Assembly: GCA_018819285.1 (NCBI GenBank)
Contig: JAHJQM010000010.1
Coordinates: 10,930-74,929, forward strand
Length of the DNA: 64,000 nt
Direction: 5' to 3'
Source of the DNA: Candidatus Omnitrophota bacterium
Lineage (GTDB): Bacteria > Omnitrophota > Gorgyraeia > Gorgyraeales > Gorgyraeaceae
A program made the translations under genes and the position numbers. Shown here piece by piece: positions 3,623-57,269 of this stretch; the first letter of the stretch is position 1, and each line of letters opens with the position of its first letter. The notes beneath the pieces were generated by a model, which saw only the letters and a program-made list of their open reading frames with translations, searched no databases and had not been told where the DNA came from.

Positions 3623-5707
3623 TATAGGATGATGGGTATGAAAGATTTAAATATTTCTGCAAGATTTGTTAAGGGCGTCGGGCCTTCCAGGTTAAGTACA
3701 TTGAGCCATCTAGGCATAGAGACTATATATGACCTTCTTTATTGTTTTCCGCGCAGGCATGAGGACAGGAGCAGGATCAAGAAGATAACTGAGATAAGGC
3801 CTGGAAATTTTGAAACAATAAAAGTAAAGGTGCTTACCTTTGGAGACCGCATGTCAAAAAAAGGCATGAGTATATTTCAAGTGGCTGTCGGAGATTCTAC
3901 CGGGGTAGTTCACGCTACATGGTTCAATCAGCCGTATATGAAAGATAAATTTAAAATAGGCCAGGAATTGATTTTATATGGAAAGGTGGAAAAATATAAT
4001 TATCTGCAGATAAATAATCCTGAATACGAAATCTTAACTGGCACAAAAGAAGATTTTGTACATATAGCGAGAATTGTGCCTGTATACCCGCTTACTGAAA
4101 GTTTGAACCAGCGATGGTTCAGAAATATTATGAAATTTACAGTGGATAATTATGTGGACGAGGTTAGAGAGATATTGCCGTTTGAGATGCGCAAAAGAAA
4201 CAATCTCATGATACTTAAAGAAGCTGTGAGAAATATCCATTTTCCAGTGAGTGATTTGGTTCTGAAAAAAGCCAGGGAAAGGATTATATTTGACGAGTTT
4301 ATGATATTACAGACAGGTATTGCGTTAAAAAGAGCTAGTATCAAGATAGATTTGAGCGGTTATAGCCATAAATTGGAAGGCGACCTGATAGGCAAATTTA
4401 AAAATAATATGCCGTTTCAATTAACAAAAAGCCAGTCAAAGGTGATAAGAGAAATAGAAGAAGACATGAAGAGCCAAAAGCCGATGAATAGGCTTATACA
4501 GGGAGATGTTGGCAGTGGGAAAACAATAGTGGCTTTATATGCGCTTATTCTGACTGTTCAAAATGGATACCAGGGCGCTTTGATGGTTCCCACAGAGATA
4601 CTCGCAGAGCAGCATTATAGAAATATAAAGACATTGATAAAGCCTCTTGGAATAAATGTAATGCTTTTATCGGGAGATTTAAAAGAAGAAGAGCGCAGGC
4701 GCAGGCGGCAGATGATAGAAACAGGCGAGGCAGATATTATCATAGGCACTCATGCCCTTATTCAAGAAGGAGTCAATTTTAAAAAATTAGGCCTTGCAGT
4801 AATAGACGAACAGCACAAATTCGGAGTCATGCAAAGGGCAATATTAAAATCAAAATCACAAAATCCAGATATACTTGTTATGACAGCGACTCCTATACCA
4901 AGAACTCTGGCATTGACTGTTTATGGAGATATGGATGTGTCAACAATAGACGAATTGCCTCCTGGTAGAGGCGGCGTCAAGACGTTTTTCTTCGAAGAAA
5001 AAAATAGAGACAAAGCTTATAAGATCGCAGAAGAGGAAATAAAAATAGGCAGGCAAGTTTATATAGTTTATCCTATCATAGATGAATCAGAGAAATCAGA
5101 TTTGAGAGCAGCTATTAAGATGCATAAAGATCTGAGCCAGCGTTTTACTGATTTAAAAATAGGGCTTTTGCATGGAAGGATGAAATCAAAAGAAAAAGAG
5201 ACGGTAATGTGCGATTTTAAAGACCGTAAAATAGATATGCTGGTTTCAACCGTAGTTATAGAAGTAGGCGTGGATATCAGCAATGCCAGCGTGATGATTA
5301 TAGAGCATGCCGAAAGATTCGGGCTTAGCCAACTGCATCAATTAAGAGGTAGAATTGGAAGAGGTAAGCACATATCTTACTGCATATTAGTCAGCGAACC
5401 AAAGACAGATGATGCAAAACACAGGTTAAGCGCTATGCTGAATACCCAAGATGGTTTTAAGATAGCGGAAGCTGATCTTGAAATCAGAGGGCCTGGAGAA
5501 TTTTTCGGCACAAAGCAGCATGGCCTTCCTGAATTGAAGATAGCCAATATAGTAAGGGACAGGGATCTGTTAGAACTTGCTAAAGCAGAGGCATTTGATT
5601 TAATTAAAAGAGACAGGTTTTTAAGATTACCTGAAAACAGATTGATAAGAGATAGCCTTTTGTCTAAATTTAGCAAGGAAGACTTAGAACTGGCTTCAGT
5701 AGGATAA
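3614..5707 (+). CDS. recG: ATP-dependent DNA helicase RecG
   Basis: Wedge domain, DEAH-type helicase motifs (GDVGSGKT, DEQH) and a C-terminal helicase domain; 697 aa. Confidence 0.9.
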   Translation: MSTYRMMGMKDLNISARFVKGVGPSRLSTLSHLGIETIYDLLYCFPRRHEDRSRIKKITEIRPGNFETIKVKVLTFGDRMSKKGMSIFQVAVGDSTGVVHATWFNQPYMKDKFKIGQELILYGKVEKYNYLQINNPEYEILTGTKEDFVHIARIVPVYPLTESLNQRWFRNIMKFTVDNYVDEVREILPFEMRKRNNLMILKEAVRNIHFPVSDLVLKKARERIIFDEFMILQTGIALKRASIKIDLSGYSHKLEGDLIGKFKNNMPFQLTKSQSKVIREIEEDMKSQKPMNRLIQGDVGSGKTIVALYALILTVQNGYQGALMVPTEILAEQHYRNIKTLIKPLGINVMLLSGDLKEEERRRRRQMIETGEADIIIGTHALIQEGVNFKKLGLAVIDEQHKFGVMQRAILKSKSQNPDILVMTATPIPRTLALTVYGDMDVSTIDELPPGRGGVKTFFFEEKNRDKAYKIAEEEIKIGRQVYIVYPIIDESEKSDLRAAIKMHKDLSQRFTDLKIGLLHGRMKSKEKETVMCDFKDRKIDMLVSTVVIEVGVDISNASVMIIEHAERFGLSQLHQLRGRIGRGKHISYCILVSEPKTDDAKHRLSAMLNTQDGFKIAEADLEIRGPGEFFGTKQHGLPELKIANIVRDRDLLELAKAEAFDLIKRDRFLRLPENRLIRDSLLSKFSKEDLELASVG

Positions 5708-15108: not shown

Positions 15109-16635
15109 ATGCTCGTCTCTAAATCTACGCCTTTTATTAAGCTGAAAAATCTCAAAATAAAGCCTGATATATTTGAAAAGATCCCTGCCAAAGTTGCATG
15201 CCATTATAAAGTTATGCCAATAAAATTTGAAAAAAATACGCTTATAGTGGCCATAGAAGATCCGCTAAATCTGATGGTTTTGGATGATATAAGTTTATTT
15301 TTAGGATTTAAAATAGTGCCTGTGTGCGCGAGCCTTTCTGATATATTAGAAGCTATTAAAGAGTACTATGGTCTGGGAGCCGAAACAATAGAGGAGATAA
15401 TAGGCGCAGGCGATATGGATAAGGATTTACCAGCGCAAAAAGCCGGGATAGAAAATATAGATGAAATGGCTCAGGACGCATCTGTAGTGAAGTTTGTGAA
15501 TCAGATGCTCGCACAGGCTGTAAAAGATGATGCTACGGACATACATATAGAACCTTACGAAAATGAGCTTAGAGCCAGGTATAGGGTGGATGGTATTTTA
15601 TATGATGTGGCTATACCTCAAAATATAACATATTTTAAATCAGCCATAGTCTCTAGGATAAAGATTATGGCTGATCTGGATATCGCAGAGCGCCGCCTTC
15701 CTCAGGATGGCAGAATAAAGATTAAGGTATCTGGCCAGGAAATAGACCTCAGGGTGTCTATATTGCCCACGCAATTCGGAGAAAGCATAGATATTAGAAT
15801 CCTTATCAGTTCTATGCTTTATAGTCTGGAAAATCTGGGATTATCGCCTGCTGATATCGAGCTATTGGAAAAACTTATAAAAAAGCCGCATGGAATTATT
15901 TTTATTACAGGGCCTACTGGCGGCGGCAAAACTACCACTCTTTATGCGTGTTTATCAAAAATAAATAATAAAGACAAAAAAATCATTACTATAGAAGATC
16001 CTATAGAATACCAGTTAAAAGGCATTACTCAGATACAGGTTCATCCAAAGATAAGATTAGATTTTGCAGCAGGGTTAAGGTCTATGTTAAGGCATGACCC
16101 TGATATTATGATGGTGGGAGAAGTCAGGGATTTCGAAACAGCAGAAATAACGATCAGAGTTGCTTTGACAGGGCATTTGGTATTTAGCACGCTTCATACC
16201 AATGATGCAGCAGGGGGCGTAACCAGGCTTTTAGATATGGGCGTTGAGCCATATCTAGTGGCAAGTTCAGTGGAATGTTTTATTGCACAGAGGCTTGTCA
16301 GGGTTATCTGTCCTGATTGCAAAACCAGGATAGGACCAAATGAAGAAATTTTGAAGGAATTTGGAATTGATAATATAGATAATGGAAAAATTTACGAAGC
16401 GAAAGGTTGCAAATCCTGCAAATTTACAGGATATAAAGGCAGGACTGCGATATATGAGTTTTTAATCATGAAGGATGAAATTCGAGAGATGGTTCTAAAC
16501 CGCTCATCGTCAAGCGAGATAAAAAATAAAGCATTGGAACTTGGAATGCGCACTCTTCGGATGGATGGCTTGAAAAAGATAAAAAAAGGTTTAACTACTT
16601 TTAACGAAGTAATAAGAGTTACTAAAGAGGATTAA
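15109..16635 (+). CDS. gspE: type II secretion system ATPase GspE (PilB-type)
   Basis: N-terminal T2SSE_N domain, Walker A GPTGGGKTTT, Asp and His boxes, C-terminal CxxC…CxxC zinc site; 508 aa. Confidence 0.85.
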   Translation: MLVSKSTPFIKLKNLKIKPDIFEKIPAKVACHYKVMPIKFEKNTLIVAIEDPLNLMVLDDISLFLGFKIVPVCASLSDILEAIKEYYGLGAETIEEIIGAGDMDKDLPAQKAGIENIDEMAQDASVVKFVNQMLAQAVKDDATDIHIEPYENELRARYRVDGILYDVAIPQNITYFKSAIVSRIKIMADLDIAERRLPQDGRIKIKVSGQEIDLRVSILPTQFGESIDIRILISSMLYSLENLGLSPADIELLEKLIKKPHGIIFITGPTGGGKTTTLYACLSKINNKDKKIITIEDPIEYQLKGITQIQVHPKIRLDFAAGLRSMLRHDPDIMMVGEVRDFETAEITIRVALTGHLVFSTLHTNDAAGGVTRLLDMGVEPYLVASSVECFIAQRLVRVICPDCKTRIGPNEEILKEFGIDNIDNGKIYEAKGCKSCKFTGYKGRTAIYEFLIMKDEIREMVLNRSSSSEIKNKALELGMRTLRMDGLKKIKKGLTTFNEVIRVTKED

Positions 16636-16637
16636 TA

Positions 16638-17870
16638 GTGCCTAGGTTTATATATCGAGTAAAAAAAGGGCCAGAGGAAAACTTAGAAGGCGCTATTGAG
16701 GCAGATTCAGAGAATGCAGCTGTTAATAAATTGATCCAATCTGGGTATTATCCTGTATGGGTTACAGAGAAGGAGAGTTTTGTACGAAAATCTTTTATTT
16801 CATACGGGAAGAGTCGAGAAGATTTATATAGGGTAAAGATTAAAACAAAGGAAACGGCTAATTTTACAAGGCGCCTATCAGAACTTTTAGGCTCAGGCCT
16901 TGCGCTTTATAATGCATTAGGTGTAATTGAGAATCAGACGGAAAATAATAATTTAAAACTGATAATAGGGACTGTTAAGAGCCGCATAAAAGATGGAAAA
17001 AAATTTTCAGAGGCATTGGAAAATTATCCTTATATTTTTTCAGAGCTATGCGTAAACCTTGTGCGTTCAGGAGAAGAATCAGGTTTAGTGAACGAGGTGC
17101 TGGAGAATATATCGGATTTCCTGGATAAGGATGAAGATATGAGGTCCAAGGTCATTGTAGCGTTGGCGTATCCTGGCCTGATGGCAATAGTAGGCCTTGC
17201 CACAGTATTTATTCTAGTTATATTCATTGTCCCGAGATTAGTTAATATCTTCATAGAAATGGGCGAAGAGTTGCCGCTGGTGACCAGGATACTTTTAAGG
17301 ATAAGCGATTTCATAAAGGCTTATTGGATTTTATTAATCCTTTTCATGGGAGGCTTGATCTTTTTACTTAAGAGTGGCAAGTTAAACCCTATTGCAAAAA
17401 ATAAAATAGACAGGATCAAGTTAAGATTACCTATTTTAGGAGATCTTGTAAGAAATGTAGAATTTGCAAGATTTTCCAGGACTCTTTCCATGCTTCTCAA
17501 AAACGGGGTTCCGATATTGGATTCTTTAAAGATTACTTCAGGGGTGGTAACAAATAATGCGATAAGAAGAGATATAAGCGCTATTCATAATGATGTTAAG
17601 CTAGGACTGAGTCTTGCTACGGCAATGAAAAAAAGAGAATGCTTTCCTTTGTTTTTAGCGAATATGGCAGCAGTGGGAGAAGAGGGCGGTTTCCTGGATA
17701 AGGCATTGTTTAATATCGCGCGTAATTATGAAATAGAATCAGATAAGACTATGAAAACACTAACAGCTTTTTTGGAGCCGGCTTTTATTCTGATAATGGG
17801 CCTAGTGGTTGGTTTTATAGTAATTAGCATGCTTTTGCCGGTATTTCAGATATCACTGGTAACACATTGA
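16638..17870 (+). CDS. gspF: type II secretion system inner-membrane platform protein GspF
   Basis: Two T2SSF repeats and three TM segments; 410 aa; directly downstream of gspE. Confidence 0.85.
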   Translation: MPRFIYRVKKGPEENLEGAIEADSENAAVNKLIQSGYYPVWVTEKESFVRKSFISYGKSREDLYRVKIKTKETANFTRRLSELLGSGLALYNALGVIENQTENNNLKLIIGTVKSRIKDGKKFSEALENYPYIFSELCVNLVRSGEESGLVNEVLENISDFLDKDEDMRSKVIVALAYPGLMAIVGLATVFILVIFIVPRLVNIFIEMGEELPLVTRILLRISDFIKAYWILLILFMGGLIFLLKSGKLNPIAKNKIDRIKLRLPILGDLVRNVEFARFSRTLSMLLKNGVPILDSLKITSGVVTNNAIRRDISAIHNDVKLGLSLATAMKKRECFPLFLANMAAVGEEGGFLDKALFNIARNYEIESDKTMKTLTAFLEPAFILIMGLVVGFIVISMLLPVFQISLVTH

Positions 17871-17883
17871 AATGGAGGGTTGG

Positions 17884-18300
17884 ATGAAAACTAAAAAAGG
17901 TTTTACCTTGATCGAATTAATGCTGGTTGTAATCATTATTGGCGTGCTCGTTTCAATGGTAGTCCCGAGACTTGTTGGGCGATCAGAAGAGGCCAGAGTA
18001 GCTGCTAGTAAGGCAGATATAAATGCCAACATCTCAGTTGCGTTTGATTTATATGAGCTGGATAACGGAAAATATCCTACTACAGAAGAGGGGCTAAGGG
18101 TATTACTTACAAAGCCTGCTTCAGCTGTAAAATGGAAAGGCCCTTACCTTAAAAAAGAACCCATTGATCCATGGGGAAGAAAATATCTATACAGGTCTCC
18201 AGGCGATCATGTTAGTGATTATGATCTTTATTCTTATGGCCCTGATGGGATAGAAGGCGGAGGAGACGATGTTACTAACTGGGAAGAGGCAAAAATGTGA
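17884..18300 (+). CDS. gspG: type II secretion major pseudopilin GspG
   Basis: Prepilin leader MKTKKG|FTLIELM with E+5. Downstream motifs …KADI…LYELDNGKYPTTEEGL…GPYLKK…DPWG…Y…YGPDG are characteristic of GspG. The ATG at 17884 has a GGAGG Shine-Dalgarno; the ORF opens at 17872. Confidence 0.85.
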   Translation: MKTKKGFTLIELMLVVIIIGVLVSMVVPRLVGRSEEARVAASKADINANISVAFDLYELDNGKYPTTEEGLRVLLTKPASAVKWKGPYLKKEPIDPWGRKYLYRSPGDHVSDYDLYSYGPDGIEGGGDDVTNWEEAKM

Positions 18301-18637
18301 AGGTTTCTTATTGCTTGAGATAATGATAAGCGTTTTAATATTATCTATAGGGGTTGTATCGGTATTGAGTTCTTTCGCAGGTCTAATAAGGGCGACAGAG
18401 CTTTCAAAGAGTTATTTTAAGGCAGGTCTTCTTCTGGAAGAAAAATTGTTAGAGTTTTATAATAGCGATATCGAAGAAGGTATATCAAGAGGAGAGTTTA
18501 GCGATTTTGACAACAGATTTTCATGGGATCTGGATGTGGTTAAATCAGAAGACGGTTTTTGCAAAGAAGTTAGCCTGAAGGTTCTATGGCGCGAAAAAGA
18601 TAAAGAAAAAGATTTATCTGTCTTAACATATATATGA
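18269..18637 (+). CDS. gspI: minor pseudopilin, GspI-like
   Basis: Class III signal peptide (KCEG|FLLLEIM, E+5); ~120 aa; lies between gspG and gspJ-like. Confidence 0.55.
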   Translation: MLLTGKRQKCEGFLLLEIMISVLILSIGVVSVLSSFAGLIRATELSKSYFKAGLLLEEKLLEFYNSDIEEGISRGEFSDFDNRFSWDLDVVKSEDGFCKEVSLKVLWREKDKEKDLSVLTYI

Positions 18638-19224
18638 CACGCAGGTCTTTTGCTCTTATAGAACTTATAATTGCAACTGTGATGCTGGCCATCATAATTG
18701 TTTCCATATACAGCGTTTTTAGCGTGGGTATAAAGGCATGGCGCAGAGGAAGCGAAGGCAGAGATTTTCAGAAAATCAGGATAGGGCTTTTAAGAATGCA
18801 GAAAGAACTGCAAAACTCTTTCTTTTTTTCTGAAGTGCCTTTTAAAGGTGTTTCTAAAGAAATTATTTTTCCGATGGTCATATCCGGAGAGAATAGAGAC
18901 GACGTCTATGTAATTAATTATTATATAGCAGAAGACAGGGGTGACGGATACAGCGCTCTGAAGAAAAGAAAAACTCTTTTTATGGATAATAAGATTCCTG
19001 GAGAGAAAGATGCGGACGAGGTTGTATTTCTGGCGAATTCAATAAATTTTGAATATGCGTATGAATTAAAAAACGGATTGAAGGGTTTTAAATGGAAGGC
19101 TGCGTGGGGAGAATCCCAGAAAAAAAATCCTTTAGCAGTTAAGGTTAATTTTAGTCTAGGAGCAGATGAAGGCGTCTATCATAAGATAATATTTATTATG
19201 CAAGGGGCTTTGGGGATAGAATGA
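18634..19224 (+). CDS. gspJ: minor pseudopilin, GspJ-like
   Basis: MTRRS|FALIELIIA prepilin-type N-terminus; ~196 aa; correct operon position. Confidence 0.5.
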   Translation: MTRRSFALIELIIATVMLAIIIVSIYSVFSVGIKAWRRGSEGRDFQKIRIGLLRMQKELQNSFFFSEVPFKGVSKEIIFPMVISGENRDDVYVINYYIAEDRGDGYSALKKRKTLFMDNKIPGEKDADEVVFLANSINFEYAYELKNGLKGFKWKAAWGESQKKNPLAVKVNFSLGADEGVYHKIIFIMQGALGIE

Positions 19225-20063
19225 AAAGCAAAAAGGCTAGCATATTAATATTTGTTATGTGGGCGCTTATAATTTTATCTTTATTAAGCATAACCGTTTC
19301 TTATAATTCCGCAGCTGATATAAAACTTGCTAAATATGAATCCTTGGGCATAAAATCGTTATATCTTGCAAAGGCCGGAATTGCAAAGATGATAATCGAA
19401 TTGAATAAAGATAAAAATAATTACGATAGCCTTAATGAAGATTGGAATAAAGAAAGGGAGTTTATATTAGGCGGGAGCAAGGTTATATACAGAGCTTGCG
19501 ATGAAGGAGCAAGGCTTAATCTTAACAGTTCAAATTTAAATAAGGAGTATTTAATTAGGCTAGGACTGGATGATGATGTATGTCAGGGGCTGTTGGGTTA
19601 CAGGATTAAAAAAGGAGAAAAGGGCTTCGAGTTTATGGAGGAGTTATTTTTGATAGATGGAATGACGCGAGATATCTATTTAAGCATAAAAGATTATATG
19701 ACAATTTATAGAGGTCTTGGCTCAAGAGTTAATATAAATACAGCTGACGAAAATATTTTAAAAATAGTTTTAGGAGATGACACCTTGATGATAAATAAAA
19801 TAATTACATACAAGGAAGGCAATGATGGCGAAATCTGCACCGAAGATGACGGGATATTTACAGAAGATAATTTCAGTTTTATATTTGAAAATTTTGGAGT
19901 TACACCTGAAGCTATTTTAAATTATCAGACTTTGTTTGATGTGAGCTCAGGATTTTTTAGAATACTGGCAGACGCATCTTTTTCAGAAGATAAGAGTCAG
20001 ATGAAGAGCGTTACGGCAATAGTAGATAAGTTAGGGAAAATTTATTATTGGGAAGAGGAGTAA
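19221..20063 (+). CDS. gspK: minor pseudopilin GspK-like
   Basis: N-terminal TM segment, DEGARLNLNS and VNINTA motifs typical of GspK; 280 aa. Confidence 0.6.
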   Translation: MKSKKASILIFVMWALIILSLLSITVSYNSAADIKLAKYESLGIKSLYLAKAGIAKMIIELNKDKNNYDSLNEDWNKEREFILGGSKVIYRACDEGARLNLNSSNLNKEYLIRLGLDDDVCQGLLGYRIKKGEKGFEFMEELFLIDGMTRDIYLSIKDYMTIYRGLGSRVNINTADENILKIVLGDDTLMINKIITYKEGNDGEICTEDDGIFTEDNFSFIFENFGVTPEAILNYQTLFDVSSGFFRILADASFSEDKSQMKSVTAIVDKLGKIYYWEEE

Positions 20064-20064
20064 G

Positions 20065-21201
20065 TTGGATAAGTCTAAAGATATTTTGATTATACCAAGA
20101 TATCAGGTTGCTTTAAGATTCATAGAGATTCCTTCTACAGATCCTTCTGAGATTAAGAGCATGATGGAATTTCAGACCTTTAAAGAATCGCCCTATCAAA
20201 AGAAAGAGATCATAACAAGCTTCAGAAATATAGGATCTTATAAAAAAGGATTTTCTTGTATAATGCTGGCTATCGCAAAAAGACAGCACATAGAAGAGAT
20301 AATGGCGCAAAATGGGGCAAAGCCGGAGAATATAAGACTGGAGACAGAGCTATTATATTTATACCTCTTAAAAAAAAGCATAGTTAAGCAGGACAAGGTG
20401 AGCTTGGTTATAAATATCCGGAGAGATTATTTAGAAATTATGATAATAGATAATATAAAACCTGTTTTTTCAAGAGGGCTGAGCAGCTTGGAGGGATGGC
20501 TGGAAGAAATAAAGCGGTCTCTATCCTCATACAAAAGAGATAAAAATAATAAAGAAATAGAAAAACTAGTTGTTATGCATAGCTCAAATCTGAGCATGGA
20601 AGATATAAGGTTTAATATAAAAACGTTTTTTTCAATCCCTGCGAATTTTTATGAATATGAAGAGAATTTGAACAGCCTGGATATGCCTCTCGAGGTAGAT
20701 CTTTTGCCAATAGAATATATTGATAAAAGATTGAATAAGGAGAACATAAGGCAGGTTTTCCTGACATATTTTCTTCTACTTATTGTCATGGCCATGCTGG
20801 CATCTTTTTTTATTTTTAAGATCCGGGAAAAAAATAAAACAATTTTAGCGATTTCCGAAAAAACTGATAAAATCCAGAAAGATGCAGACCGATTGAATCT
20901 TTTTCTTAAAAAGACAGGGCTTCTGAAATCTCAGAAGGAAGAAGGTGAGCGCATCGTAAATATTCTAAAAGAGTGTTATGAACTTGTACCGCAGGACATA
21001 TCTCTTGCAGGCTTGGATTATGGCGAAAAAGACATTCTTTATTGTAAAGGTATAGCTAGATATATGCCTAGCGTATTTAATTTCATAAAGGTTCTTGAAA
21101 AATCAAAATATTTCAAAAAGATAGAAGTGAAATACGCGACAAAGAAAGAAATAGAAAATCAGGAGTTTACTGATTTCAGCATAGCATGTTTTACGCATTG
21201 A
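20065..21201 (+). CDS. gspL: GspL-like bitopic assembly protein (cytoplasmic actin-like domain + TM + periplasmic domain); TTG start
   Basis: Single TM around residue 235. Size and position match GspL. GAGGAG Shine-Dalgarno 5 nt before the TTG at 20065. Confidence 0.45.
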   Translation: MDKSKDILIIPRYQVALRFIEIPSTDPSEIKSMMEFQTFKESPYQKKEIITSFRNIGSYKKGFSCIMLAIAKRQHIEEIMAQNGAKPENIRLETELLYLYLLKKSIVKQDKVSLVINIRRDYLEIMIIDNIKPVFSRGLSSLEGWLEEIKRSLSSYKRDKNNKEIEKLVVMHSSNLSMEDIRFNIKTFFSIPANFYEYEENLNSLDMPLEVDLLPIEYIDKRLNKENIRQVFLTYFLLLIVMAMLASFFIFKIREKNKTILAISEKTDKIQKDADRLNLFLKKTGLLKSQKEEGERIVNILKECYELVPQDISLAGLDYGEKDILYCKGIARYMPSVFNFIKVLEKSKYFKKIEVKYATKKEIENQEFTDFSIACFTH

Positions 21202-21202
21202 T

Positions 21203-21712
21203 ATGATTCCTGTAAACCTTTCAAAAAGAGAAAAATGTATTTTTATCATAACGATAATTTTCACTATTATTGCATTATTGTATAATTTTATATTTAAGCC
21301 TGGCCTTATGAAATTACAGATTTTGAATAACGAGATAACAGCTAAAACGGCTATAATGAATAAAGGCATTAGATTGAAAGATAGAAAAGACTCTATTATC
21401 CAGGAATATAATAGGTATGCAAAATCTACTAAAAATATATCCAAGATTTTGAGCGAAGTGGAAAGCTATGCGGATTCTATCGGTATAAAAACTAGCAATA
21501 TAAAACCTGGCCAGGCAATGGAGATGGGGTTTTATAAGGAATATGCTGTAGAGCTTCAGATAGAAGGGGGACTAAAAGATATTATTAAATTCCTATCAGA
21601 GCTTGCGAAACTGCCAACCCTAGCGGTGTTAAAGAAATTTAATTTCAGGCTTATCTCACAAAATCCATCTATTTTCAAAGGCACAATAATCTTTTCCAAA
21701 ATCATCATATAA
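21203..21712 (+). CDS. gspM: GspM/PilO-like protein
   Basis: N-terminal TM followed by a periplasmic domain; 169 aa; lies after gspL-like. Confidence 0.45.
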   Translation: MIPVNLSKREKCIFIITIIFTIIALLYNFIFKPGLMKLQILNNEITAKTAIMNKGIRLKDRKDSIIQEYNRYAKSTKNISKILSEVESYADSIGIKTSNIKPGQAMEMGFYKEYAVELQIEGGLKDIIKFLSELAKLPTLAVLKKFNFRLISQNPSIFKGTIIFSKIII

Positions 21713-21900: not shown

Positions 21901-21983
21901 TTAATTCCTTAGCCAATTGCGCGTCAGCTGCTTCACTTTGCGAAGTAAAGTAGCGGGAGAGAAATTCAGAGGTGATTATACAT
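21901..21983 (+). promoter_or_regulatory. 5' leader cassette L1, copy 2 (TTAATTCCTTAGCCAATT … AAATTCAGAGGTGATTATACA + TTG)
   Basis: Seen in sequence. Confidence 0.7.
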
Positions 21984-22222
21984 TGGAAAAGATATATTTG
22001 ATAAAAGACTTAGCAAGATTGAGCGGGCAGACAGTTTACACGCTTAAATATTATCTGAATATCGGGCTTATTAAGGAGGTCGCTAGAAGCCCTGAGACTA
22101 ATTTTAGGTATTTTGATGATACTACATTAGAAAGATTAAAGAGAATCAGGGAATTGCGTAAAGAGAATAAGTCAATAGCAGAGATAAAAGATATTTTGGG
22201 TTTGACCACTTCAATCGCGTAG
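21984..22222 (+). CDS. MerR-family helix-turn-helix transcriptional regulator (DNA-binding domain only, ~79 aa; TTG start)
   Basis: LIKDLARLSGQTVYTLKYYLNIGLI…RYF is a MerR HTH signature. The TTG lies 8 nt after GAGGTGA, as in ackA. The 21917 ORF in the track reads through the leader. Confidence 0.6.
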
Positions 22223-22281: not shown

Positions 22282-23112
22282 ATGTCATACTATAGCGTAC
22301 TAAACTTAAATAAAGAGCCGTTTTCAACAAGCCCTGATCCATATTTCTTTTATCCATCTATTTCGCATAAGCAAGCAATGCAAAGGCTTGAAATAGCCGT
22401 CAGATTAAAAAGAGGCCTTAGCGTTATTTTAGGCGATGTGGGCATTGGAAAAACTACTCTTGCAAGAGCCTTTATACAGGAGCTGCACTCTACTAATGGA
22501 GCCATAACTCATATGATATTGGACCCTACCTATGATTCGGAATTTCAATTTGTAACAACCCTCGCTAAGCTTTTCGGAATAAAGGGCTCATTTCGCTCTA
22601 CTCTGGATTATAAAGAAGCAATAGAAAGGTTTTTATTTAAGAAATGCGTTAATGAAAGCCATGTAATATCCCTAATTATAGACGAAGGACAGAAAATGAG
22701 TTTAGCTACATTAGAACTCTTGCGCACTCTTTTAAATTACGAGACCAATGAATACAAGCTTCTCCAGCTTGTTATCATGGGCCAGATGGAACTTTTGCCT
22801 AAACTGCAGCGTATAAATAACTTTTCAGATAGAATTAGTTTAAAATACATACTGAATCCATTGGATTATAATGAGACGAAAAACATGATAGAATTCAGGC
22901 TAAAACAGGCAGGCGCTGCATCGGGCAAGGAGATATTTACAGAAAAGGCAATACTGATGATATATCAATATACTCAAGGTTACCCTAGAAAGATTGCTGC
23001 TGTATGTCATAATCTATTGGAAGAGCTTGTAATGAGAGATAGAAAGATTATTGAGGAGGATCTGGTGAACGAGGTAATAGAAAAGGATAGAAAGGTGGTT
23101 TTGATATCATGA
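22282..23112 (+). CDS. gspA: ExeA/GspA-family AAA ATPase of type II secretion
   Basis: FGL…PF N-terminus, Walker A GDVGIGKTTL, Walker B IIDEGQ; 276 aa; followed by a small bitopic partner. Confidence 0.7.
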   Translation: MSYYSVLNLNKEPFSTSPDPYFFYPSISHKQAMQRLEIAVRLKRGLSVILGDVGIGKTTLARAFIQELHSTNGAITHMILDPTYDSEFQFVTTLAKLFGIKGSFRSTLDYKEAIERFLFKKCVNESHVISLIIDEGQKMSLATLELLRTLLNYETNEYKLLQLVIMGQMELLPKLQRINNFSDRISLKYILNPLDYNETKNMIEFRLKQAGAASGKEIFTEKAILMIYQYTQGYPRKIAAVCHNLLEELVMRDRKIIEEDLVNEVIEKDRKVVLIS

Positions 23113-23633
23113 TAGAGTCTACCCCTGAAGAGAAACTTTTGAATCTTATTAAAAAAGGCCAGTCAAAGGTAAGGTTTGGCAAGGATTTGAAGATATTCAC
23201 AAAGGTGAATATGATATTAATCAGTCTTATAGCAGTAATTACAGTTGTTTTCCTGGCAGATATTTTTATTTTTAAAAAGGACCCTTCGTTAGAGCCTGTT
23301 ATTGTAGGTACTCAACAGACTAAAGCGCCTCAGGCGCTTCAAATGCAACCAGCAGCAGCAGAAAAAATAGAAGAAGATAGTGTAATGGATCATGCCAGCC
23401 TGGATAAAAATATAAATATAAAAAAGATCTCCAAAGAAGAGATTTTGGGGAATCTTAATTTGTTAGGTATTATTACAGGCGATAATAATCAGGCAATCAT
23501 AGAGGATAAAACTTTAAAGAAAACGTTTTTTCTTTATAAAGGCGACTTGTTTGGAGAATTAAAGGTATATGATATAAGAGATAGCGTAGTGATTTTAGAA
23601 TATAAAGGAGAAAAAATAGAATTAAATATATAG
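23109..23633 (+). CDS. gspB: bitopic membrane protein, GspB/ExeB-like (PilP/GspC-HR-like C-terminal beta domain)
   Basis: N-terminal cytoplasmic segment, one TM, periplasmic C-terminus; translationally coupled to gspA. Confidence 0.4.
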   Translation: MIESTPEEKLLNLIKKGQSKVRFGKDLKIFTKVNMILISLIAVITVVFLADIFIFKKDPSLEPVIVGTQQTKAPQALQMQPAAAEKIEEDSVMDHASLDKNINIKKISKEEILGNLNLLGIITGDNNQAIIEDKTLKKTFFLYKGDLFGELKVYDIRDSVVILEYKGEKIELNI

Positions 23634-23669: not shown

Positions 23670-25661
23670 ATGAAAAAACTTATTATCGGCATGCTATTAT
23701 TTCTAGCATTTTCAAGCCTGGTTTTTGGAGCGCACCAGGATGACTCAGATTTGATATCGCTGGATCTAAAGGGTATGGACATAAGGGATGTATTCAAGAT
23801 TTTATCACAGAAGAGCGGGCTTAATATAGCGGTTGATAGCGGAGTGAACGGAACAATCACGCTTTATTTAAAGGATGTGAGCATTATGGATGCCATAAGC
23901 ATAATTGCCTCGACCAATAAACTTGCTTATGAGCAGACAGGCACGCTTATGAGAATTATGAATGAAAAAGATTATGAAAAGGCCTATGGAAAAAGTTTTG
24001 ACGATAAGAAGAGAACAGAGGTTATTAAGCTGAATTACGCTAACGCTGTTGAAGTAGGGCAGGCCTTGAATCAGATGAAGTCTGATATGGGCAAGGTTAT
24101 ACCGGAAGATGTTTCTAACACCATAGTTATAATAGATACTTCTGAGAATATTGTAAAGATGAGAGATGTTGTTTCAAAGATGGATATACGGTTAGTTACA
24201 GAAGTTTTTTCTCTTGATTATGCAAAGGCAGAATTGCTTAAGGATAAAATAGGCGAGATGGTTTCTAAGGGCGCTGGAAGCGTAAGGTTTGACGAAAAGA
24301 CAAACAAGCTTGTAGTTAAAGATACACAGGAGAAGATAGATGATATTCGCAAAGTAATAGATGCATTTGATGAAAAAACAAGGCAGGTCCTGATAGACGC
24401 CAGTATTATCCAGGTAACGCTTTCGGATAAGTATAGTTATGGGATAGACTGGACAAATATAGCAAAGCTTGGAGATATAAGGCTTACAGGCGATACGAAT
24501 CTTAGTACAGGCTTGTCAAATGTAACTCCGTCAACCCTCAGTATAGCTACTACAGGCGGAAATTATTCCGCAATAGTCAGCTTATTAAAAACATACGGAG
24601 AGGCCAATGTTTTGTCAAGGCCCAGGATTACGGTTCTTGACAGACAAGAGGCTAAAATCCTGGTAGGCGCAAAAGAGGTCTATGTTACAAGCGAGGTTAC
24701 AACTACAAGCGGAGGCACATATCACACTACAGACCATGTCCAGTTTGTAGATGTAGGCGTCAGGCTTGCAGTGACTCCAGAGATCAATAAGGCAGGTTTT
24801 GTTACATTGAAGATAAAACCAGAAGTCTCTAGCGCTGATGCAACAAAGACAGTGGAGTTAAAAAATCCTGATGGTTCTACAAGGACAATAGTGCCTTACG
24901 TGACTACTTCTGAAGCAGATACTCATGTTTCAGTGAAAGATGGGTCAACTATAATAATAGGTGGATTAATAAAAGATACCATGGTAGATCATAGAGAAAA
25001 GGTACCTTTTTTAGGGGATGTGCCTTTAATAGGAAAACTTTTTTCTACCAAAGGTAAGACCAAAGAAAAAACAGAACTCGTAATATTTCTGACTCCGCAT
25101 ATTATTGAGGGAGACAAAACTACAGAAGAGACGCAAAGGTATATAGCTGACTGGGATAAAAAGGCGGAAGAGATAAAGATAGAAGAACCGAAGGAGCCGG
25201 AGATTAAGTTATCTAAGCGAGCGCCTGAGAAAAAAGAAAAACAGCTAAAACAAAAGACAGCCACTGGAGAAGTTGCAGCTAAGAAAAAAGGACAACCAAA
25301 ACAAAAATGGGCACCTATTTTAGGTTCAGGGGGTGGCGAAGAATTGGAAGATAGCGCCACAAAATCGTCAGTTACTAATAGGACGCCTTATGAAGAATAC
25401 TATTTAAATATAGGACAGGAAATTAATGATTTAGCAAAACAGGATAAGGATGTTAGCGGGATAAATGGAGAGGTGGAGCTAAAGTTTACGCTGGATAAAG
25501 AAGGTTTTTTAATAAGAGGACCTATAGTGCTCAATCAGCCTGATCTCAGGCTTGTGAGAAGCGCTGTAAAAATCGTAAAAAAAGCAGCGCCATTCAGTGG
25601 TTTTCCAAAGGCGTTAAATAAGGATCAGGCAGATTTTAATGTAGTGGTAAGGTATGAATAA
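23670..25661 (+). CDS. gspD: type II secretion secretin GspD with an unusual C-terminal TonB_C-like domain
   Basis: Signal peptide, N0/STN-like and N1-type domains, a canonical secretin core (…VPFLGDVPLIGKLF…VIFLTPHII), a K/E-rich linker and ~90 aa resembling a TonB C-terminal domain (GEVELKFTLDKEGFL…SGFP). Confidence 0.8.
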   Translation: MKKLIIGMLLFLAFSSLVFGAHQDDSDLISLDLKGMDIRDVFKILSQKSGLNIAVDSGVNGTITLYLKDVSIMDAISIIASTNKLAYEQTGTLMRIMNEKDYEKAYGKSFDDKKRTEVIKLNYANAVEVGQALNQMKSDMGKVIPEDVSNTIVIIDTSENIVKMRDVVSKMDIRLVTEVFSLDYAKAELLKDKIGEMVSKGAGSVRFDEKTNKLVVKDTQEKIDDIRKVIDAFDEKTRQVLIDASIIQVTLSDKYSYGIDWTNIAKLGDIRLTGDTNLSTGLSNVTPSTLSIATTGGNYSAIVSLLKTYGEANVLSRPRITVLDRQEAKILVGAKEVYVTSEVTTTSGGTYHTTDHVQFVDVGVRLAVTPEINKAGFVTLKIKPEVSSADATKTVELKNPDGSTRTIVPYVTTSEADTHVSVKDGSTIIIGGLIKDTMVDHREKVPFLGDVPLIGKLFSTKGKTKEKTELVIFLTPHIIEGDKTTEETQRYIADWDKKAEEIKIEEPKEPEIKLSKRAPEKKEKQLKQKTATGEVAAKKKGQPKQKWAPILGSGGGEELEDSATKSSVTNRTPYEEYYLNIGQEINDLAKQDKDVSGINGEVELKFTLDKEGFLIRGPIVLNQPDLRLVRSAVKIVKKAAPFSGFPKALNKDQADFNVVVRYE

Positions 25662-25702: not shown

Positions 25703-26653
25703 ATGTTAAAATATCTTATATTATCTATATTATTTATAGTTTTTACACAGCTTGGGTTTGCAGAACCTGTCGGGACTGTTGAAGATAGTAAATCTTCATG
25801 GTATGCGGTAATTGGAACTGAGAATAAAGGCAAAAAACTTTACATGAAAGGAGATCTCTTTTCTCCTGATAAAAATCCCGCAAAGTCTCTCAGGATATTA
25901 GATATAAAAAAGAATAGCCTTGTATTAGAAGATGTGATCTTAAAGAATAGCATTATAGTAAGGCCGGGAGAAAATATCCCAATAGAAGGAGCTGGGATGA
26001 TTTTTGAAAAAACAGTTGAATCCAGCGTATTGGAGTATAATTATAATAAACCCCCTAAAAAATTTACAAAAAATCAGTTAGAAGATTTTACGATAAAAAG
26101 CCTGGAAAAGAAAAAGATCGTGCTGGAAAAGCCTTATAACGCTTCTTCCCAGGTGAAACAACTTTCAAATAAGGAAAAGGAGATTTTTAATAGCCCCAGA
26201 GATCAGGATGCAGATAAAAATGTCATCATAACAGAACTTTTTAATAAAATAGATTCAAAGAAAATAGGCGATAATGTATGGGTGCTGGATAGGCCGAGCG
26301 CTGAATCTGCGATACGCAATGCAGGCGTTGCTCTTATCTCTGCAATAAAAAGAGTTGAACCGAGATACAGGCTGGGAGAAGGCCCAAGCTTAAAATTTAA
26401 CACAGATCTTGGGGCAGCAGTAGTGAATAAAGAAGGGTTTCTGGTACAGAGTATAGCTGTTGCAAAGCTTACAGAGAACTTTGGTATAAGAAAGGGTGAT
26501 ATTATCAAGAGCATAAATGGATACCCCGTGAATAGCCTTCTTGGGATATACAGGGCGTACGAGAATATTACGTCAGATAAAGGCGCCAAGTTTTTAAGTC
26601 TTAATATTGCAAGGGATGGAAAGACGAAGACATTGGTTTATAAAATAAAATAA
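25703..26653 (+). CDS. gspC: GspC-like protein with C-terminal PDZ domain
   Basis: N-terminal signal/TM segment and a C-terminal PDZ (GIRKGDIIKSINGYPVNSL). PDZ-bearing GspC is specific to type II secretion. Confidence 0.5.
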   Translation: MLKYLILSILFIVFTQLGFAEPVGTVEDSKSSWYAVIGTENKGKKLYMKGDLFSPDKNPAKSLRILDIKKNSLVLEDVILKNSIIVRPGENIPIEGAGMIFEKTVESSVLEYNYNKPPKKFTKNQLEDFTIKSLEKKKIVLEKPYNASSQVKQLSNKEKEIFNSPRDQDADKNVIITELFNKIDSKKIGDNVWVLDRPSAESAIRNAGVALISAIKRVEPRYRLGEGPSLKFNTDLGAAVVNKEGFLVQSIAVAKLTENFGIRKGDIIKSINGYPVNSLLGIYRAYENITSDKGAKFLSLNIARDGKTKTLVYKIK

Positions 26654-33000: not shown

Positions 33001-33604
33001 AGAGGAGAATAAAGAGCTTCAAGATAGATTTGTATTTTTGACAACCCAGAGAGATGACTTATTAAAGGCAAAAGACAGCATATTGGAGGCAATTAATAAA
33101 ATAAATAAAACAACAAAAGAGCTCTTTATGGAAACATTCAAGAATATTCAAGTGGAATTCAGAAACTTTTTCAAAATGCTTTTTGGAGGAGGAGATGGAG
33201 AACTTATGCTCCTGGATGATGGCAATGTGCTTGAGTGCGGGATTGAAATAGTCGCAAGGCCTCCGGGGAAAAGACTTCAAAATGTTTCGCTTCTTTCAGG
33301 AGGAGAAAAAGCCCTTACCGCAGTAGCTCTTATATTTGCAATATTTAAAGTAAAGCCAAGCCCATTCTGCGTTTTGGATGAAATAGACGCGCCTCTTGAT
33401 GAATCAAATGTTGACAGATTTTCAAGAAGCCTCGATATGTTTACAAATACATCCCAATTTATCGTTGTAACTCACAATAAAAAGACCATTGATAAGGCTG
33501 ATGTGATGTATGGCATTACTATGCAGCAATCTGGCGTATCAAAGGTTGTTTCTGTGAAATTCTCAGATGCGAAGAAACAGGAAGCGGTAGAGCCGAAGGT
33601 TTAA
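30017..33604 (+). CDS. smc: chromosome segregation protein SMC
   Basis: Walker A GPNGCGKSN, long coiled coils, hinge, and C-terminal LSGGEKALTAVALIFA and Walker B DEIDAPLD; 1195 aa. Confidence 0.9.
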   Translation: MYFKSIELFGFKSFADKTRLDFEPGITAIVGPNGCGKSNIADSIKWVLGEQSAKVLRGGKMEDVIFNGTDGKEPVSFAEVSLTLSNQDRALPIEYDEVTVTRRLYRSGESEYLLNKTPVRLKDINELFMGTGIGTSAYSIIEQGKIDQVLSSKPEERREVFEEASGITKYKTKKKEALRKLEDTEQNLLRINDIIVEVKRQINSIERQAKKAERYKERYEELRSIELKLSRIDLEILRSKNLNSEGNTSELNQKEAELDLELNRLSRDLSLLNKDSSHVENKRVNLKSRIVELNSEISKASNRISMDKERVDELTKRRSGLEVEIKKSEDILISQEKEIANLKEKISVLEKEDNERFSKVTEKEKRFEEISKTVKTSETALSNSKANIIDIASRQAKLRNQVAKISTTISTHDSRLKRLESEKSTVSEEKNNLQAKLNEVLAEITAIEKEAVSLKLERDSVSVSVSAIRSHINSLTEESKKIETLLASNKSKLEFLEEARLRYEGFSAGVKAILGSQSRIDGVRDCLANLLTVKKGYEVAIETAMSEYLQSIVVDTMESVDKAIMYLREHSYGKASFIYPGYFNSADIALEAAVDINDSRILGKAADFVNTGDSYKNILRHILKDVFIVNDLKDARALLDNTKGPARRKFITLSGEVVEDGFITGGSSKKEELGLINRDARINEIRQAISELETHLGKLEEERIGKEKEEGELKTKLETLTNVISEKNILFANVSNQRSNIEENIKGIGDEISLVNLEIDEVNSEILILKQEEKTSLKTLLELENESKINEERIHSNEILITECAKEREQLLVEIAEARTELGSLESKKEGLSGTLNILESSLRDAKNNVESRKLEITSSIKKTEELNIEIREFEKNITVLSEEGSGRDKELNEVEAVYSEITEKTAYYETKSKEIESQINNIRSKMHSVDLQKAEVNYGIENLTQRIRDVYKTELLEFQLAEDWQALDKEILKNNVEEMRNQLDSMGAVNLIAIEENKELQDRFVFLTTQRDDLLKAKDSILEAINKINKTTKELFMETFKNIQVEFRNFFKMLFGGGDGELMLLDDGNVLECGIEIVARPPGKRLQNVSLLSGGEKALTAVALIFAIFKVKPSPFCVLDEIDAPLDESNVDRFSRSLDMFTNTSQFIVVTHNKKTIDKADVMYGITMQQSGVSKVVSVKFSDAKKQEAVEPKV

Positions 33605-34746
33605 GCGCAGATTTTATTTTTGCCAGATCTTTTGGCTTCGTAGAGAGCCCTGTCAGCATAGGCTATCAAATCCTCTTTTTTCTCTCCGTCTTCAGGAAAC
33701 GATGAGACACCTATACTTATAGTTATATTTTTAAGGCCAGGGCTTGTTTCAACAGCCCTTCTTATGCGCTCAGCCAGGATAAGCGCTTCTTCTTTTTTTG
33801 TTATAGGAAGGATTATACCGAATTCTTCTCCGCCATAACGCGCTACTGCATCTATCTTTCTTGAAACATCCCTGAATATTTTCGAAATTTCCCTGATGAT
33901 ACTGTCGCCTGCCTGATGGCCATAGGTGTCATTGAAGACCTTAAAGTTATCTATGTCAATCATAAGAAGCGTAAAGCAAAATTTCATAAGAGAAGATTTT
34001 TTTATCTCTTCTTCCAACAGGTACTGAAAATATCCGTGGTTCCATAATCCTGTAAGAGAATCAGAATTTGAAAGCACCACAGTCTGTTCATAAAGCCTGG
34101 AGTTTTCAATTGCGAGGCCTGCCTGGTTTGCGAACATGGTCAATACTCTAACAGCGTCATTTGTTATGGGGTTTTTGTTAAATCTATTATCCGCCAGCAG
34201 GACGCCTATTACCTTATCCTTTGCTTTTAAAGGCACTGTCACAAATTCGTCCAGATCCAAAATGATGGAAAATTCATTTTTCACTTTTTGTTTTGCCTCC
34301 AGAGTATTGATTATAAAAGGCAGGCCTTCCATGACTGTGAGCGCGATTACTCCTGAATCTTCTCTGATAGGAATTTTTATTGATTTTATTGTCTGATTGA
34401 GCTTGGATTTTTTGAGATTATCGAATTGGGTTTCTATACTTATCAGTTCCTCTAGTCCGATTTTATTTTTCTCTATATGTGTCCAGATTTTAGAAGCATC
34501 TTCTGCGCTGTCAGGGCCTATGCCCATTTTGCCTTCCAGCCGGTTTTCTTTTTCATTCACAAGGAAAAGCATGGCTCTGTTAAAGCTCAGGCCTGCATGG
34601 GATGTGGCAGCTGTAAGTATAATATAGAGAATTTCCTCCAGATTGAGTGTGGTGCGCATGGCATTGCCTATATCATAAAGCATTTCCAACTCAGTCCTTG
34701 TCTTGCTTAACTCTTCCTGGTAATTTTCATTTTCTATATTGGCCAT
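33601..34746 (-). CDS. GAF-domain diguanylate cyclase (GGDEF, GGEEF active site, RxxD I-site)
   Basis: N-terminal GAF; C-terminal GGDEF with RKIDAVARYGGEEF; 381 aa; convergent with smc. Confidence 0.85.
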   Translation of the reverse strand: MANIENENYQEELSKTRTELEMLYDIGNAMRTTLNLEEILYIILTAATSHAGLSFNRAMLFLVNEKENRLEGKMGIGPDSAEDASKIWTHIEKNKIGLEELISIETQFDNLKKSKLNQTIKSIKIPIREDSGVIALTVMEGLPFIINTLEAKQKVKNEFSIILDLDEFVTVPLKAKDKVIGVLLADNRFNKNPITNDAVRVLTMFANQAGLAIENSRLYEQTVVLSNSDSLTGLWNHGYFQYLLEEEIKKSSLMKFCFTLLMIDIDNFKVFNDTYGHQAGDSIIREISKIFRDVSRKIDAVARYGGEEFGIILPITKKEEALILAERIRRAVETSPGLKNITISIGVSSFPEDGEKKEDLIAYADRALYEAKRSGKNKICA

Positions 34747-56812: not shown

Positions 56813-56944
56813 TAACCACTATATATTGTATAGGAAAAAAAGCTCTCTAAAGTAGGTAGTTATACCTATTTACAGATGCTGGGCTTTCTGGTATCATTTG
56901 GGCTCACGCGATTGGTGTCATACGCCAAAAAAAAGGAGGGGGAA

Positions 56945-57220
56945 ATGGCTATTAAGAAATGTTCGTCAAAAAAGGTGATTTTTAAGATAAGCGCGCCAAC
57001 TGCAAAGGATGTGCGCCTGGCAGGAGATTTTAATTCATGGGATGCATCTAGAGCCAATCTTAAAAAATCTAAAGATGGAGTATGGACAAGAGATTTGACC
57101 CTTAAGTCTGGACGTTATGAGTATAAATATTTAATTGACGGCCAATGGCAGAGAGACCCTTTAAATAATCTTTTCATAGTAAACGCTTTCGGTTCAGAAA
57201 ATTCAGTAATCGAGTTATAA
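56945..57220 (+). CDS. stand-alone CBM48/AMPK-beta-like glycogen-binding-module protein (~91 aa)
   Basis: VIFKISAPTAKDVRLAGDFNSWD…GVW…L…G.YEYKYLIDGQW matches CBM48. ATG at 56945 preceded by AAGGAGGGGG; the ORF opens at 56876. Confidence 0.55.
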   Translation: MAIKKCSSKKVIFKISAPTAKDVRLAGDFNSWDASRANLKKSKDGVWTRDLTLKSGRYEYKYLIDGQWQRDPLNNLFIVNAFGSENSVIEL

Positions 57221-57253
57221 GTTTACACTCTGACATTGTCAAAGTGTAAACTT
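57219..57253 (+). repeat. REP-like palindromic hairpin element, copy G (TTTACAC/GTGTAAA variant)
   Basis: AAGTTTACACTCTGACATTGTCAAAGTGTAAACTT. The TAA of the conserved ATAAGTT terminates the CBM48 gene. Confidence 0.9.
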
Positions 57254-57269
57254 ATTTAGGCGGAGGAGT

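Follow-up and report, generated by a model that had tools for sequence, protein, structure and literature searches.

In the present work, we analysed a stretch of 64,000 nucleotides from Candidatus Omnitrophota bacterium (contig JAHJQM010000010.1, positions 10,930 to 74,929 of the forward strand; hereafter, the window, in whose own numbering coordinates are given unless another locus is named). The gene located at 23670..25661 (+) codes for a 663-residue secretin ending in a domain of the TonB/TolA type. We consider the identity of this C-terminal domain (CTD), together with its location on a secretin, as close to certain. Moreover, this fusion is conserved across the phylum Omnitrophota. As to its role, we tentatively favour that of a docking module, hanging from the secretin by a flexible tether.

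The open reading frame (ORF) runs from its ATG to its stop codon at exactly 23670..25661 and encodes 663 residues plus the stop, in agreement with the original prediction, made from the sequence alone; the reverse strand of the same region contains many stops. The assignment of the product is based on Pfam and NCBIfam profiles, a full-length AlphaFold2 (AF2) model, and Foldseek. From the N-terminus, the following regions were recognized, all of them on the + strand. Residues 1-20 (23670..23729) represent a signal peptide (MKKLIIGMLLFLAFSSLVFG, with the putative cleavage before A), which was read from the sequence, corresponds to helix 2-17 of the AF2 model, and harbors no lipobox Cys according to the same reading. 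It precedes an N0/STN-like domain (residues 29-98; 23754..23963), which matched the Pfam families type_II_gspD_N0 and STN weakly (21.3 and 19.7 bits, respectively, both below the cut-off) and is predicted to have a beta-alpha-beta-beta-alpha fold, with a predicted local distance difference test (pLDDT) value of about 80-86. A candidate N-terminal Ton box (...ELISLDLKG...) was ruled out, as it corresponds to strand beta1 of N0 (E29-37 in the model) and is typical of STN/N0 domains. Two Secretin_N ring domains of the N1/N3-like type (residues 114-171 and 176-233; 24009..24368) were identified through their secondary structure and through PF03958, which matched two stretches of the full-length protein with 79.4 bits. 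They are followed by the secretin core, i.e., beta-barrel plus gate (residues 239-480; 24384..25109), showing long beta hairpins in the AF2 model and matching PF00263 (Secretin) at residues 306-480 with an E-value of 7.1e-52 and 175.8 bits (cut-off 27.5). Thus, both the N-terminal periplasmic domains and the canonical core that had been predicted were found. A single S-domain-like helix (residues 486-501; 25125..25172), visible in the AF2 model and having Y491 and W495 conserved among the homologues, comes after the core.

The full-length AF2 model has a mean pLDDT of 71.7 and a predicted template modelling score (pTM) of 0.40; used as a Foldseek query, it retrieved PulD, GspD, InvG, and PilQ at the top, with E-values ranging from 1e-21 to 1e-17. 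Concerning the NCBIfam equivalogs, the protein scored 272.5 bits with GspD (TIGR02517; cut-off 351.35), 255.9 with PilQ (284.35), and 215.3 with MshL (250.2); being under each of these cut-offs, it is a divergent secretin falling outside all three equivalogs. Judging from its sequence, it belongs to the secretin superfamily and is predicted to form a gated outer-membrane channel.

Beyond the core, 183 residues remain, a value very close to the extension of about 180 originally proposed. The helix is followed by a tether rich in Lys, Glu, and Pro (residues 502-569; 25173..25376, +), whose length varies among the homologues; the peptide KIEEPKEPEIKLSKRAPEKKEKQLKQK, quoted at first as part of a linker of this composition, maps at residues 503-529. 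The stretch from residue 507 to residue 569 is predicted to be disordered (pLDDT <50 in the full-length AF2 model) and has an isoelectric point (pI) of 9.75. In the close homologues, the region between the end of the core (residue 476) and the start of the CTD is composed of 18% K, 11.5% E, 10% A, and 7% P; the distance between core and CTD ranges from 42 to 163 residues among the homologues, with a median of 99, and the column conservation falls sharply in the tether and climbs back in the CTD. The comparison of the homologues also revealed, within the tether, a KW motif (KQKWAPILG, residues 544-552; 25299..25325, +), lying about 25-35 residues N-terminal of the CTD and disordered in the AF2 model. 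Among the homologues, the motif follows the consensus [KR]x[KR]W[TA]P[IL][LF]G, which was recognized in at least 93 of the 119 close homologues compared, and variants of it occur in others.

The CTD itself (residues 570-663, or 573-662 when delimited from the full-length AF2 model and Pfam; 25377..25658, +) was assigned through Pfam TonB_C, AF2, and Foldseek. TonB_C (PF03544) matched the isolated 163-residue tail with 28.6 bits (E 2e-6; cut-off 24.6) and tails of 95 to 104 residues with 25.4-25.7 bits, still above the cut-off; in the context of the full-length protein, the match (residues 596-662, 23.3 bits) is slightly under it, and the NCBIfam model tonB_Cterm (TIGR01352) gave 25.2 bits, under its cut-off of 27.1. 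Furthermore, 41 non-redundant C-terminal tails, drawn from 120 close homologues, were aligned (alignment A1). The CTD has a mean column identity of 63% in this alignment, and, when the tails were scanned one by one, 39 of the 41 matched TonB_C and eight matched TonB_2. The profile built on A1 retrieved only four chains from all the sequences of the PDB, all belonging to the TonB family: the CTD of the Helicobacter pylori TonB (5lw8 and 6sly; E 3e-5), HasB, and the Vibrio TonB2. The AF2 model obtained from the same alignment (pLDDT 93.7, pTM 0.81) has an alpha1-beta1-beta2-alpha2-beta3 topology, and the best 21 Foldseek matches in the PDB were all C-terminal domains of TonB, TolA, HasB, or FusB, the first of them being 6sly (TM-score 0.69). 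According to these data, the CTD is nearest to Pfam TonB_C by sequence and nearest to TolA domain III by predicted structure, and the safest label for it is that of the TonB/TolA C-terminal superfamily. The resemblance to TonB/TolA that had been suggested was therefore recovered by profiles and by structure, and greatly exceeds what chance would give; of the two contrary outcomes set beforehand, i.e., no profile match, or a fold of the SPOR, AMIN, or S-domain type, both were looked for and neither occurred.

The last strand of the CTD coincides with the C-terminus of the protein and is conserved (...F-x-VVVRYE), with Y662 and E663 found in at least 90% of the homologues; the segment GEVELKFTLDKEGF...FNVVVRY, on which the resemblance had first been noticed, maps at residues 600-662. 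The pattern of Gly, Pro, and 'Ser-Gly-Phe-Pro' residues described on that occasion stands in part: a conserved motif does exist, and that particular spelling is a local variant of PF(P/x)(P/x)FP, with P641 and F642 invariant and a conservation of at least 90% at F645 and P646. The YP motif that TonB proteins have ahead of beta1 is replaced, in the clade of the window, by (K/R)QDVSG or DKDVSG, and NYP is kept in remoter fused relatives.

The same extension was found when the secretins of related organisms were surveyed: almost all the 120 best homologues are full fusions, with 96-100% query coverage and 52-89% identity. All the homologues with a named source belong to Candidatus Omnitrophota, including Ca. 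Gorgyraea, Ca. Saelkia, and Ca. Taenaricola. At the level of species genomes, the tail was retrieved from 29 of them, which are either Omnitrophota metagenome-assembled genomes (MAGs) or MAGs automatically labelled as 'uncultured Planctomycetia'; outside Omnitrophota-type MAGs, the CTD profile gave only weak matches (29-32% identity) in Sulfitobacter and in another alphaproteobacterium, which are taken to be ordinary TonB/TolA proteins. The gene order PilMN-PilO-MerR-ExeA-ExeB-secretin-PDZ-acyl-CoA dehydrogenase is conserved in about 28 Omnitrophota loci. A HMMER search with the CTD profile retrieved 1434 cluster representatives (E<=1e-3), and a secretin part is also present in 34 of the best 150 of these 1434 matches.

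Automated annotation has dealt with these proteins in a peculiar way. A precomputed PF03544 match is attached to 29 of the 120 best homologues, and four homologues (P0006, P0065, P0066, and P0115), which are full-length secretins, bear the NCBI name 'energy transducer TonB'; thus, the pipelines saw the domain and misnamed the proteins, and the architecture was already visible in automated annotation. These four names, together with a tonB_Cterm score near its threshold (25.2 vs 27.1 bits), would speak for a genuine TonB. However, the only hydrophobic helix of the window protein is that at residues 2-17, belonging to the signal peptide; an N-terminal transmembrane helix of the TonB type is lacking, and a complete secretin follows. 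Similarly, an assembly or frameshift artefact is contradicted by the continuous fusion ORF being found in more than 100 independent assemblies (NCBI, JGI, ENA, Logan) as well as in the 29 species-level genomes. Architecture and recurrence together refute both possibilities, to which we assign practically no probability. Since the protein has a signal peptide and lacks any anchor of the TonB/TolA type, its architecture also implies that the CTD cannot be driven by ExbBD or TolQR as TonB and TolA are. The name 'energy transducer' is wrong for the secretin fusion, the record names derived from it are misleading, and the TonB gene counts of Omnitrophota may be inflated by secretin tails.

The TonB/TolA-type domain is not confined to secretins of the kind found in the window. 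Protein P0170 (L038, 1851-5126) and proteins P0285-P0288 are Tad-type (CpaC/RcpA-like) secretins of 836-1091 residues, which combine T2SS-T3SS_pil_N and Secretin with two strong TonB_C domains (80 bits) and sit in a RcpC-secretin-TadZ/CpaF locus; P0170 also carries a long repeat region rich in Lys and Glu and has a TPR-like end. The sole member of this group with a named source is from Omnitrophota, and TonB_C was not found in any of the more than 100 CpaC homologues of other phyla in the same homologue list. The domain occurs in tandem, too: P0121 (L037, 693-3248) is a GspD-like secretin of 851 residues with three tandem TonB_C domains, and P0133 (333 residues) consists of a triple tandem repeat of a related TonB/TolA-type domain and nothing else.

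Moreover, the CTD can survive unattached to a secretin. At locus L030, the space between fabF and the acyl-CoA dehydrogenase gene lacks the entire operon but still holds a 150-residue ORF (4236-4688, +), whose product has a signal peptide followed by KSKWTPLFG, a short linker, and, at the end, the CTD. The counterpart of this site in the window holds the entire 11.6-kb operon, related to type II secretion systems (T2SSs), and the L030-type locus looks like a natural deletion which retained the tail alone. A protein of the same design, P0128 (L039, 358-807; 149 residues; three contigs), is encoded upstream of dehydrogenase and electron-transfer flavoprotein (ETF) genes. In these free-standing proteins, the KW motif comes directly after the signal peptide, as KSKWTPLF(G/S). 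The L030 protein and P0128 are 58% identical, with a dN/dS ratio of about 0.26, which indicates that the predicted free periplasmic CTD protein is under purifying selection. In addition, P0148 and P0174 are small proteins (about 218 residues) in which a Lys-rich linker joins a transmembrane helix to the CTD; P0148 is the closest stand-alone membrane-anchored relative, and no exbBD or tolQR genes were found beside its gene in the one locus examined.

As far as the role of the CTD is concerned, the reading that we favour, with a confidence somewhat short of even, is that of a tethered docking module. The flexible tether (about 65 residues), following the core and the S-domain-like helix, would carry the 90-residue TonB/TolA-type domain, with one CTD per secretin subunit hanging in the periplasm from the outer/periplasmic rim of the channel; this geometry and this stoichiometry are what we infer for a secretin, whose rings typically consist of 12-15 subunits and whose C-terminal S-domain lies, in the solved structures, on the outside of the barrel. 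The CTD would use its beta-strand-augmentation surface to hold the secretin to another envelope component, and the docking would position the channel, stabilise it, or help its assembly. Secretins need help in reaching the outer membrane, inserting into it, and staying there, and a comparable role is played elsewhere by pilotins, AMIN domains, TsaP, and ExeAB, the latter through the peptidoglycan-binding domain of ExeA. The TonB/TolA fold acts by adding a strand of the partner to its own sheet (PMC12204202), and this makes a docking module the most economical reading of the CTD. Furthermore, the ExeA-like protein encoded in the same operon lacks the peptidoglycan-binding domain of the Aeromonas ExeA; an anchoring function is therefore otherwise unaccounted for in the operon. 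The partner would probably be a general component of the envelope, and not a protein specific to T2SSs; this is favoured by the same domain being present on two classes of secretins sharing few components, and by its free survival.

Several data weigh against this interpretation. The persistence of the free periplasmic form shows that the module can act unattached, which fits a general partner and, at the same time, weakens the idea that the job of the domain is to anchor the secretin. The replacement of YP by DVSG in this clade means that the Ton-box-binding surface may not be conserved, and the Pfam TonB_C match begins only at position 12 of the profile. Besides, the full-length AF2 model, which is that of a monomer with a disordered tether, placed neither the CTD nor the KW motif on anything. 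Lastly, the taxonomic evidence covers the homologues with a named source, and many of the divergent fusions are metagenome proteins.

A direct tether to the cell wall might be envisaged in place of a protein partner: the CTD, or the basic tether and the CTD together, would bind peptidoglycan, fixing the ring to the sacculus in the same way as AMIN domains fix PilQ and the periplasmic domain of ExeA fixes ExeD. This possibility, which we regard as unlikely, is consistent with the strongly basic nature of the tether (pI 9.75) and with the features of the ExeA-like protein, which has neither a transmembrane segment nor a peptidoglycan-binding domain. No AMIN, LysM, SPOR, OmpA-like, or peptidoglycan-binding domains were found in the secretin or its neighbours, and the use of the CTD on two unrelated classes of secretins and in a free protein would suit a universal ligand. 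The C-terminus of the Escherichia coli TonB has itself been reported to have affinity for peptidoglycan.

The behaviour of the KW motif raises a different possibility, i.e., that the CTD binds a strand of the secretin itself, either in the N0/STN region or in the KWxPILG motif of a neighbouring subunit, forming a collar beneath the channel or a clamp on the periplasmic ring domains, which would aid pilotin-independent assembly. The motif travels with the CTD, both in the homologues (at least 93 of 119) and in the free-standing proteins; N0, as suggested by the weak STN/N0 matches, is a homologue of the signalling domain standing beside the Ton box in TonB-dependent transducers; neither a pilotin gene nor a lipobox was seen in the secretin and its neighbours; and the tether of about 65 residues, estimated at roughly 20 nm when extended, could reach N0. 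A contact between TonB3 and PilQ's N0 domain has also been proposed for Pseudomonas (PMC5285504). On the other hand, AF2 set the motif and the CTD against no other part of the chain, the motif is unrecognisable in roughly a fifth of the close homologues, the Tad-type secretins with TonB_C have no N0/STN, and the free-standing form occurs where the operon is absent from the locus. On the whole, we consider such a self-association quite unlikely.

It can also be asked whether the CTD captures a box-like strand exposed by an inner-membrane protein linked to a motor, either of the Ton/Tol/Poc type or belonging to the GspC/L/M platform. In this way, gate opening or assembly would be tied to the energy of the inner membrane, as in the link between TonB and its receptors, with the domains on swapped partners. 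The composition of the tether resembles that of the Pro/Glu/Lys spacer of TonB, and, according to the Rosetta-stone argument, parts that are fused in one lineage frequently interact in others. In Pseudomonas aeruginosa, the PocAB-TonB3 system is required for type IV pilus assembly, and a contact between TonB3 and the N0 of PilQ was suggested by the authors (PMC5285504); likewise, TonB2 affects transformation in Acinetobacter baumannii (PMC8811193). However, no motor genes were found, either in the window or in the neighbourhood conserved among the relatives: ExbB, ExbD, TolB, Pal, and TonB-dependent receptors were absent from nearly all the ORFs of at least 100 residues of the 64-kb window, no tol-pal genes were found among the window ORFs scanned, and neither exbB/exbD nor TonB-dependent receptor genes were found in the conserved neighbourhood of the related loci. 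Furthermore, the ExeB-like and PDZ proteins, when read by eye, showed nothing convincing that resembled a Ton box; the YP motif has disappeared, and a free periplasmic CTD cannot transmit force. We therefore give this mechanical coupling a very low probability.

A broader proposal, in the Rosetta-stone sense, is that of an 'inverted TonB', which we judge very unlikely. According to it, the fusion would represent a channel-borne docking domain on a periplasm-spanning tether and a direct link between the TonB/TolA family and secretins, in two classes of the latter; the domain would bind either the box-like strand of an energy-linked inner-membrane partner or the neighbouring subunits through KWxPILG, and assembly or gating would be coupled mechanically. 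If this were true, the contact would be the same as the one long suspected between PocAB-TonB3 and PilQ in Pseudomonas.

The comparison with known systems helps to define what is peculiar to this protein. The window secretin shares with GspD/PulD/ExeD, MshL, and PilQ the signal peptide, N0, the Secretin_N rings, the core, and the post-core helix, and, like T2SS secretins, it is encoded together with GspE, GspF, GspG, minor pseudopilin-like, GspL/M-like, GspC-like, and ExeA/ExeB-like genes. Unlike T2SS secretins, it has three N-domains instead of four and lacks a pilotin-type S-domain and a lipobox; unlike the solved secretins returned by Foldseek, all of which are shorter, it bears a long tether and a TonB/TolA-type CTD. 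As for this CTD, the Pfam family, the fold with a C-terminal edge strand, and the Pro/Glu/Lys-rich spacer preceding it are in common with the TonB domains of E. coli and H. pylori, HasB, and FusB. In contrast with TonB, it stands on an outer-membrane protein, without a transmembrane helix, a motor-binding motif, YP, or nearby ExbBD and receptor genes. With TolA, only the domain III-like fold is shared, whereas the TolA transmembrane helix, the long helical domain II, and the tolQRB-pal context are missing; with respect to TolA domain III, moreover, the sequence scores favour TonB_C over TonB_2.

Among published systems, PocAB-TonB3 is the closest parallel in functional terms, with TonB2 as a related case; both resemble the fusion in that an element of the TonB family is functionally linked to a type IV filament machine depending on a secretin. 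PocAB-TonB3 differs from it in that a separate inner-membrane protein works there with an ExbBD-like motor, whereas here the CTD is alone and covalently joined to the secretin. Similarly to AMIN domains, TsaP (LysM), the peptidoglycan-binding domain of ExeA, and the pilotin/S-domain pair, the CTD is an extra module associated with a secretin and plausibly involved in its placement in the envelope; unlike them, it has an unrelated fold, is C-terminal, and is carried by a long flexible tether. Apparently, the fusion is undescribed: no published account of a secretin-TonB_C fusion was found in the literature searched, which omits most subscription journals. A 2025 paper on the evolution of TolA and TonB does not mention secretins (PMC12204202), and the only remark of this kind in a 2026 preprint on Omnitrophota concerns the 'TonB-domain content' of two genes that flank giant proteins. 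On the reading that we favour, another module, i.e., a tethered TonB/TolA-type domain occurring throughout the phylum Omnitrophota on T2SS-like and Tad-like secretins, would be added to the helpers of secretins. The fusion might also give a handle on why the TonB3 and TonB2 paralogues matter for the type IV pili of Pseudomonas and Acinetobacter, in that a TonB-family domain and a secretin are here part of one polypeptide.

The secretin gene lies in an operon on the + strand, coding for a machine of the type IV filament kind, which is best called T2SS-like, with GspL and GspM represented by PilM/PilN-like and PilO-like proteins. Its first part (15109..20063), assigned through Pfam and NCBIfam, includes GspE (with an MshEN N-domain), GspF, GspG, a GspI-like gene, one further small ORF, and a GspK-like gene. 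T2SSE, T2SSF, and T2SSG were matched in Pfam; with NCBIfam, the GspG equivalog was exceeded (150.6 bits, cut-off 88.85), GspE scored just below its cut-off (620.9, 630.25), and the matches to GspI, GspK, and GspC were weak. The following genes (20065..21712) code for a PilM/PilN-like fusion (GspL-like, 378 residues) and a PilO-like protein (GspM-like, 169 residues), recognized through PilN and PilO in Pfam and through their transmembrane segments; in the relatives, these genes are kept beside the secretin cluster. In the window, the block formed by GspF, GspG, the minor pseudopilin, and the GspK-like gene (16638-20063, +) stands between GspE and the PilM/N-like gene. The same block is missing from that position in a related 561-kb contig (L001, 5039-7703), where GspE is directly followed by PilM/N; therefore, the operon is modular between close relatives.

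A MerR-family regulator gene (21917..22222; Pfam) is embedded in the operon, between the PilO-like and the ExeA-like genes, and its position is kept in about 24 related loci. It is followed by the gene for an ExeA/MshM-like AAA_22 ATPase (22282..23112; Pfam, AAA_22 61 bits), which lacks a PG_binding domain and is soluble, with no transmembrane segment (its hydropathy reaches a maximum of 1.08). The best NCBIfam match of this ATPase, below the cut-off, is an XrtA/PEP-CTERM-associated ATPase; the protein is 68-93% identical across the related loci, and only the neighbouring acyl-CoA dehydrogenase is better conserved among the proteins compared. The next gene (23109..23633) encodes an ExeB/GspB-like bitopic protein, with a transmembrane segment at about residues 35-55, a C-terminal HR-like domain, and weak T2SSC and T2SSB matches; it is found immediately upstream of the secretin at every related locus compared. 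The ExeA-like/ExeB-like pair presumably resembles the MshM-type short homologues of ExeA. The gene downstream of the secretin (25703..26653; PDZ_2, weak GspC_delta), found downstream of it in most of the related loci as well, codes for a GspC-like protein that begins with a signal/anchor and ends with a PDZ domain.

The other genes of the window are housekeeping ones, involved in fatty-acid synthesis, riboflavin synthesis, DNA repair, and glycogen metabolism. A GAF-GGDEF diguanylate cyclase gene (33601-34746, -) is located 17 kb downstream of the GspE gene (15109-16635, +) and is syntenic in L001. The MshEN-type N-domain binds cyclic di-GMP in MshE, and the presence of a GspE of this type and of a nearby diguanylate cyclase hints at a control of the machine by cyclic di-GMP. 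Finally, a glycogen/alpha-glucan cluster (56876-62607, +), preceded by a HisKA_3/LuxR two-component pair, harbors genes for a small CBM48 protein, a GT4/GT5-like glycosyltransferase, a DUF4912 protein, and two GH57-family proteins, one of which has a branching-enzyme C-domain.

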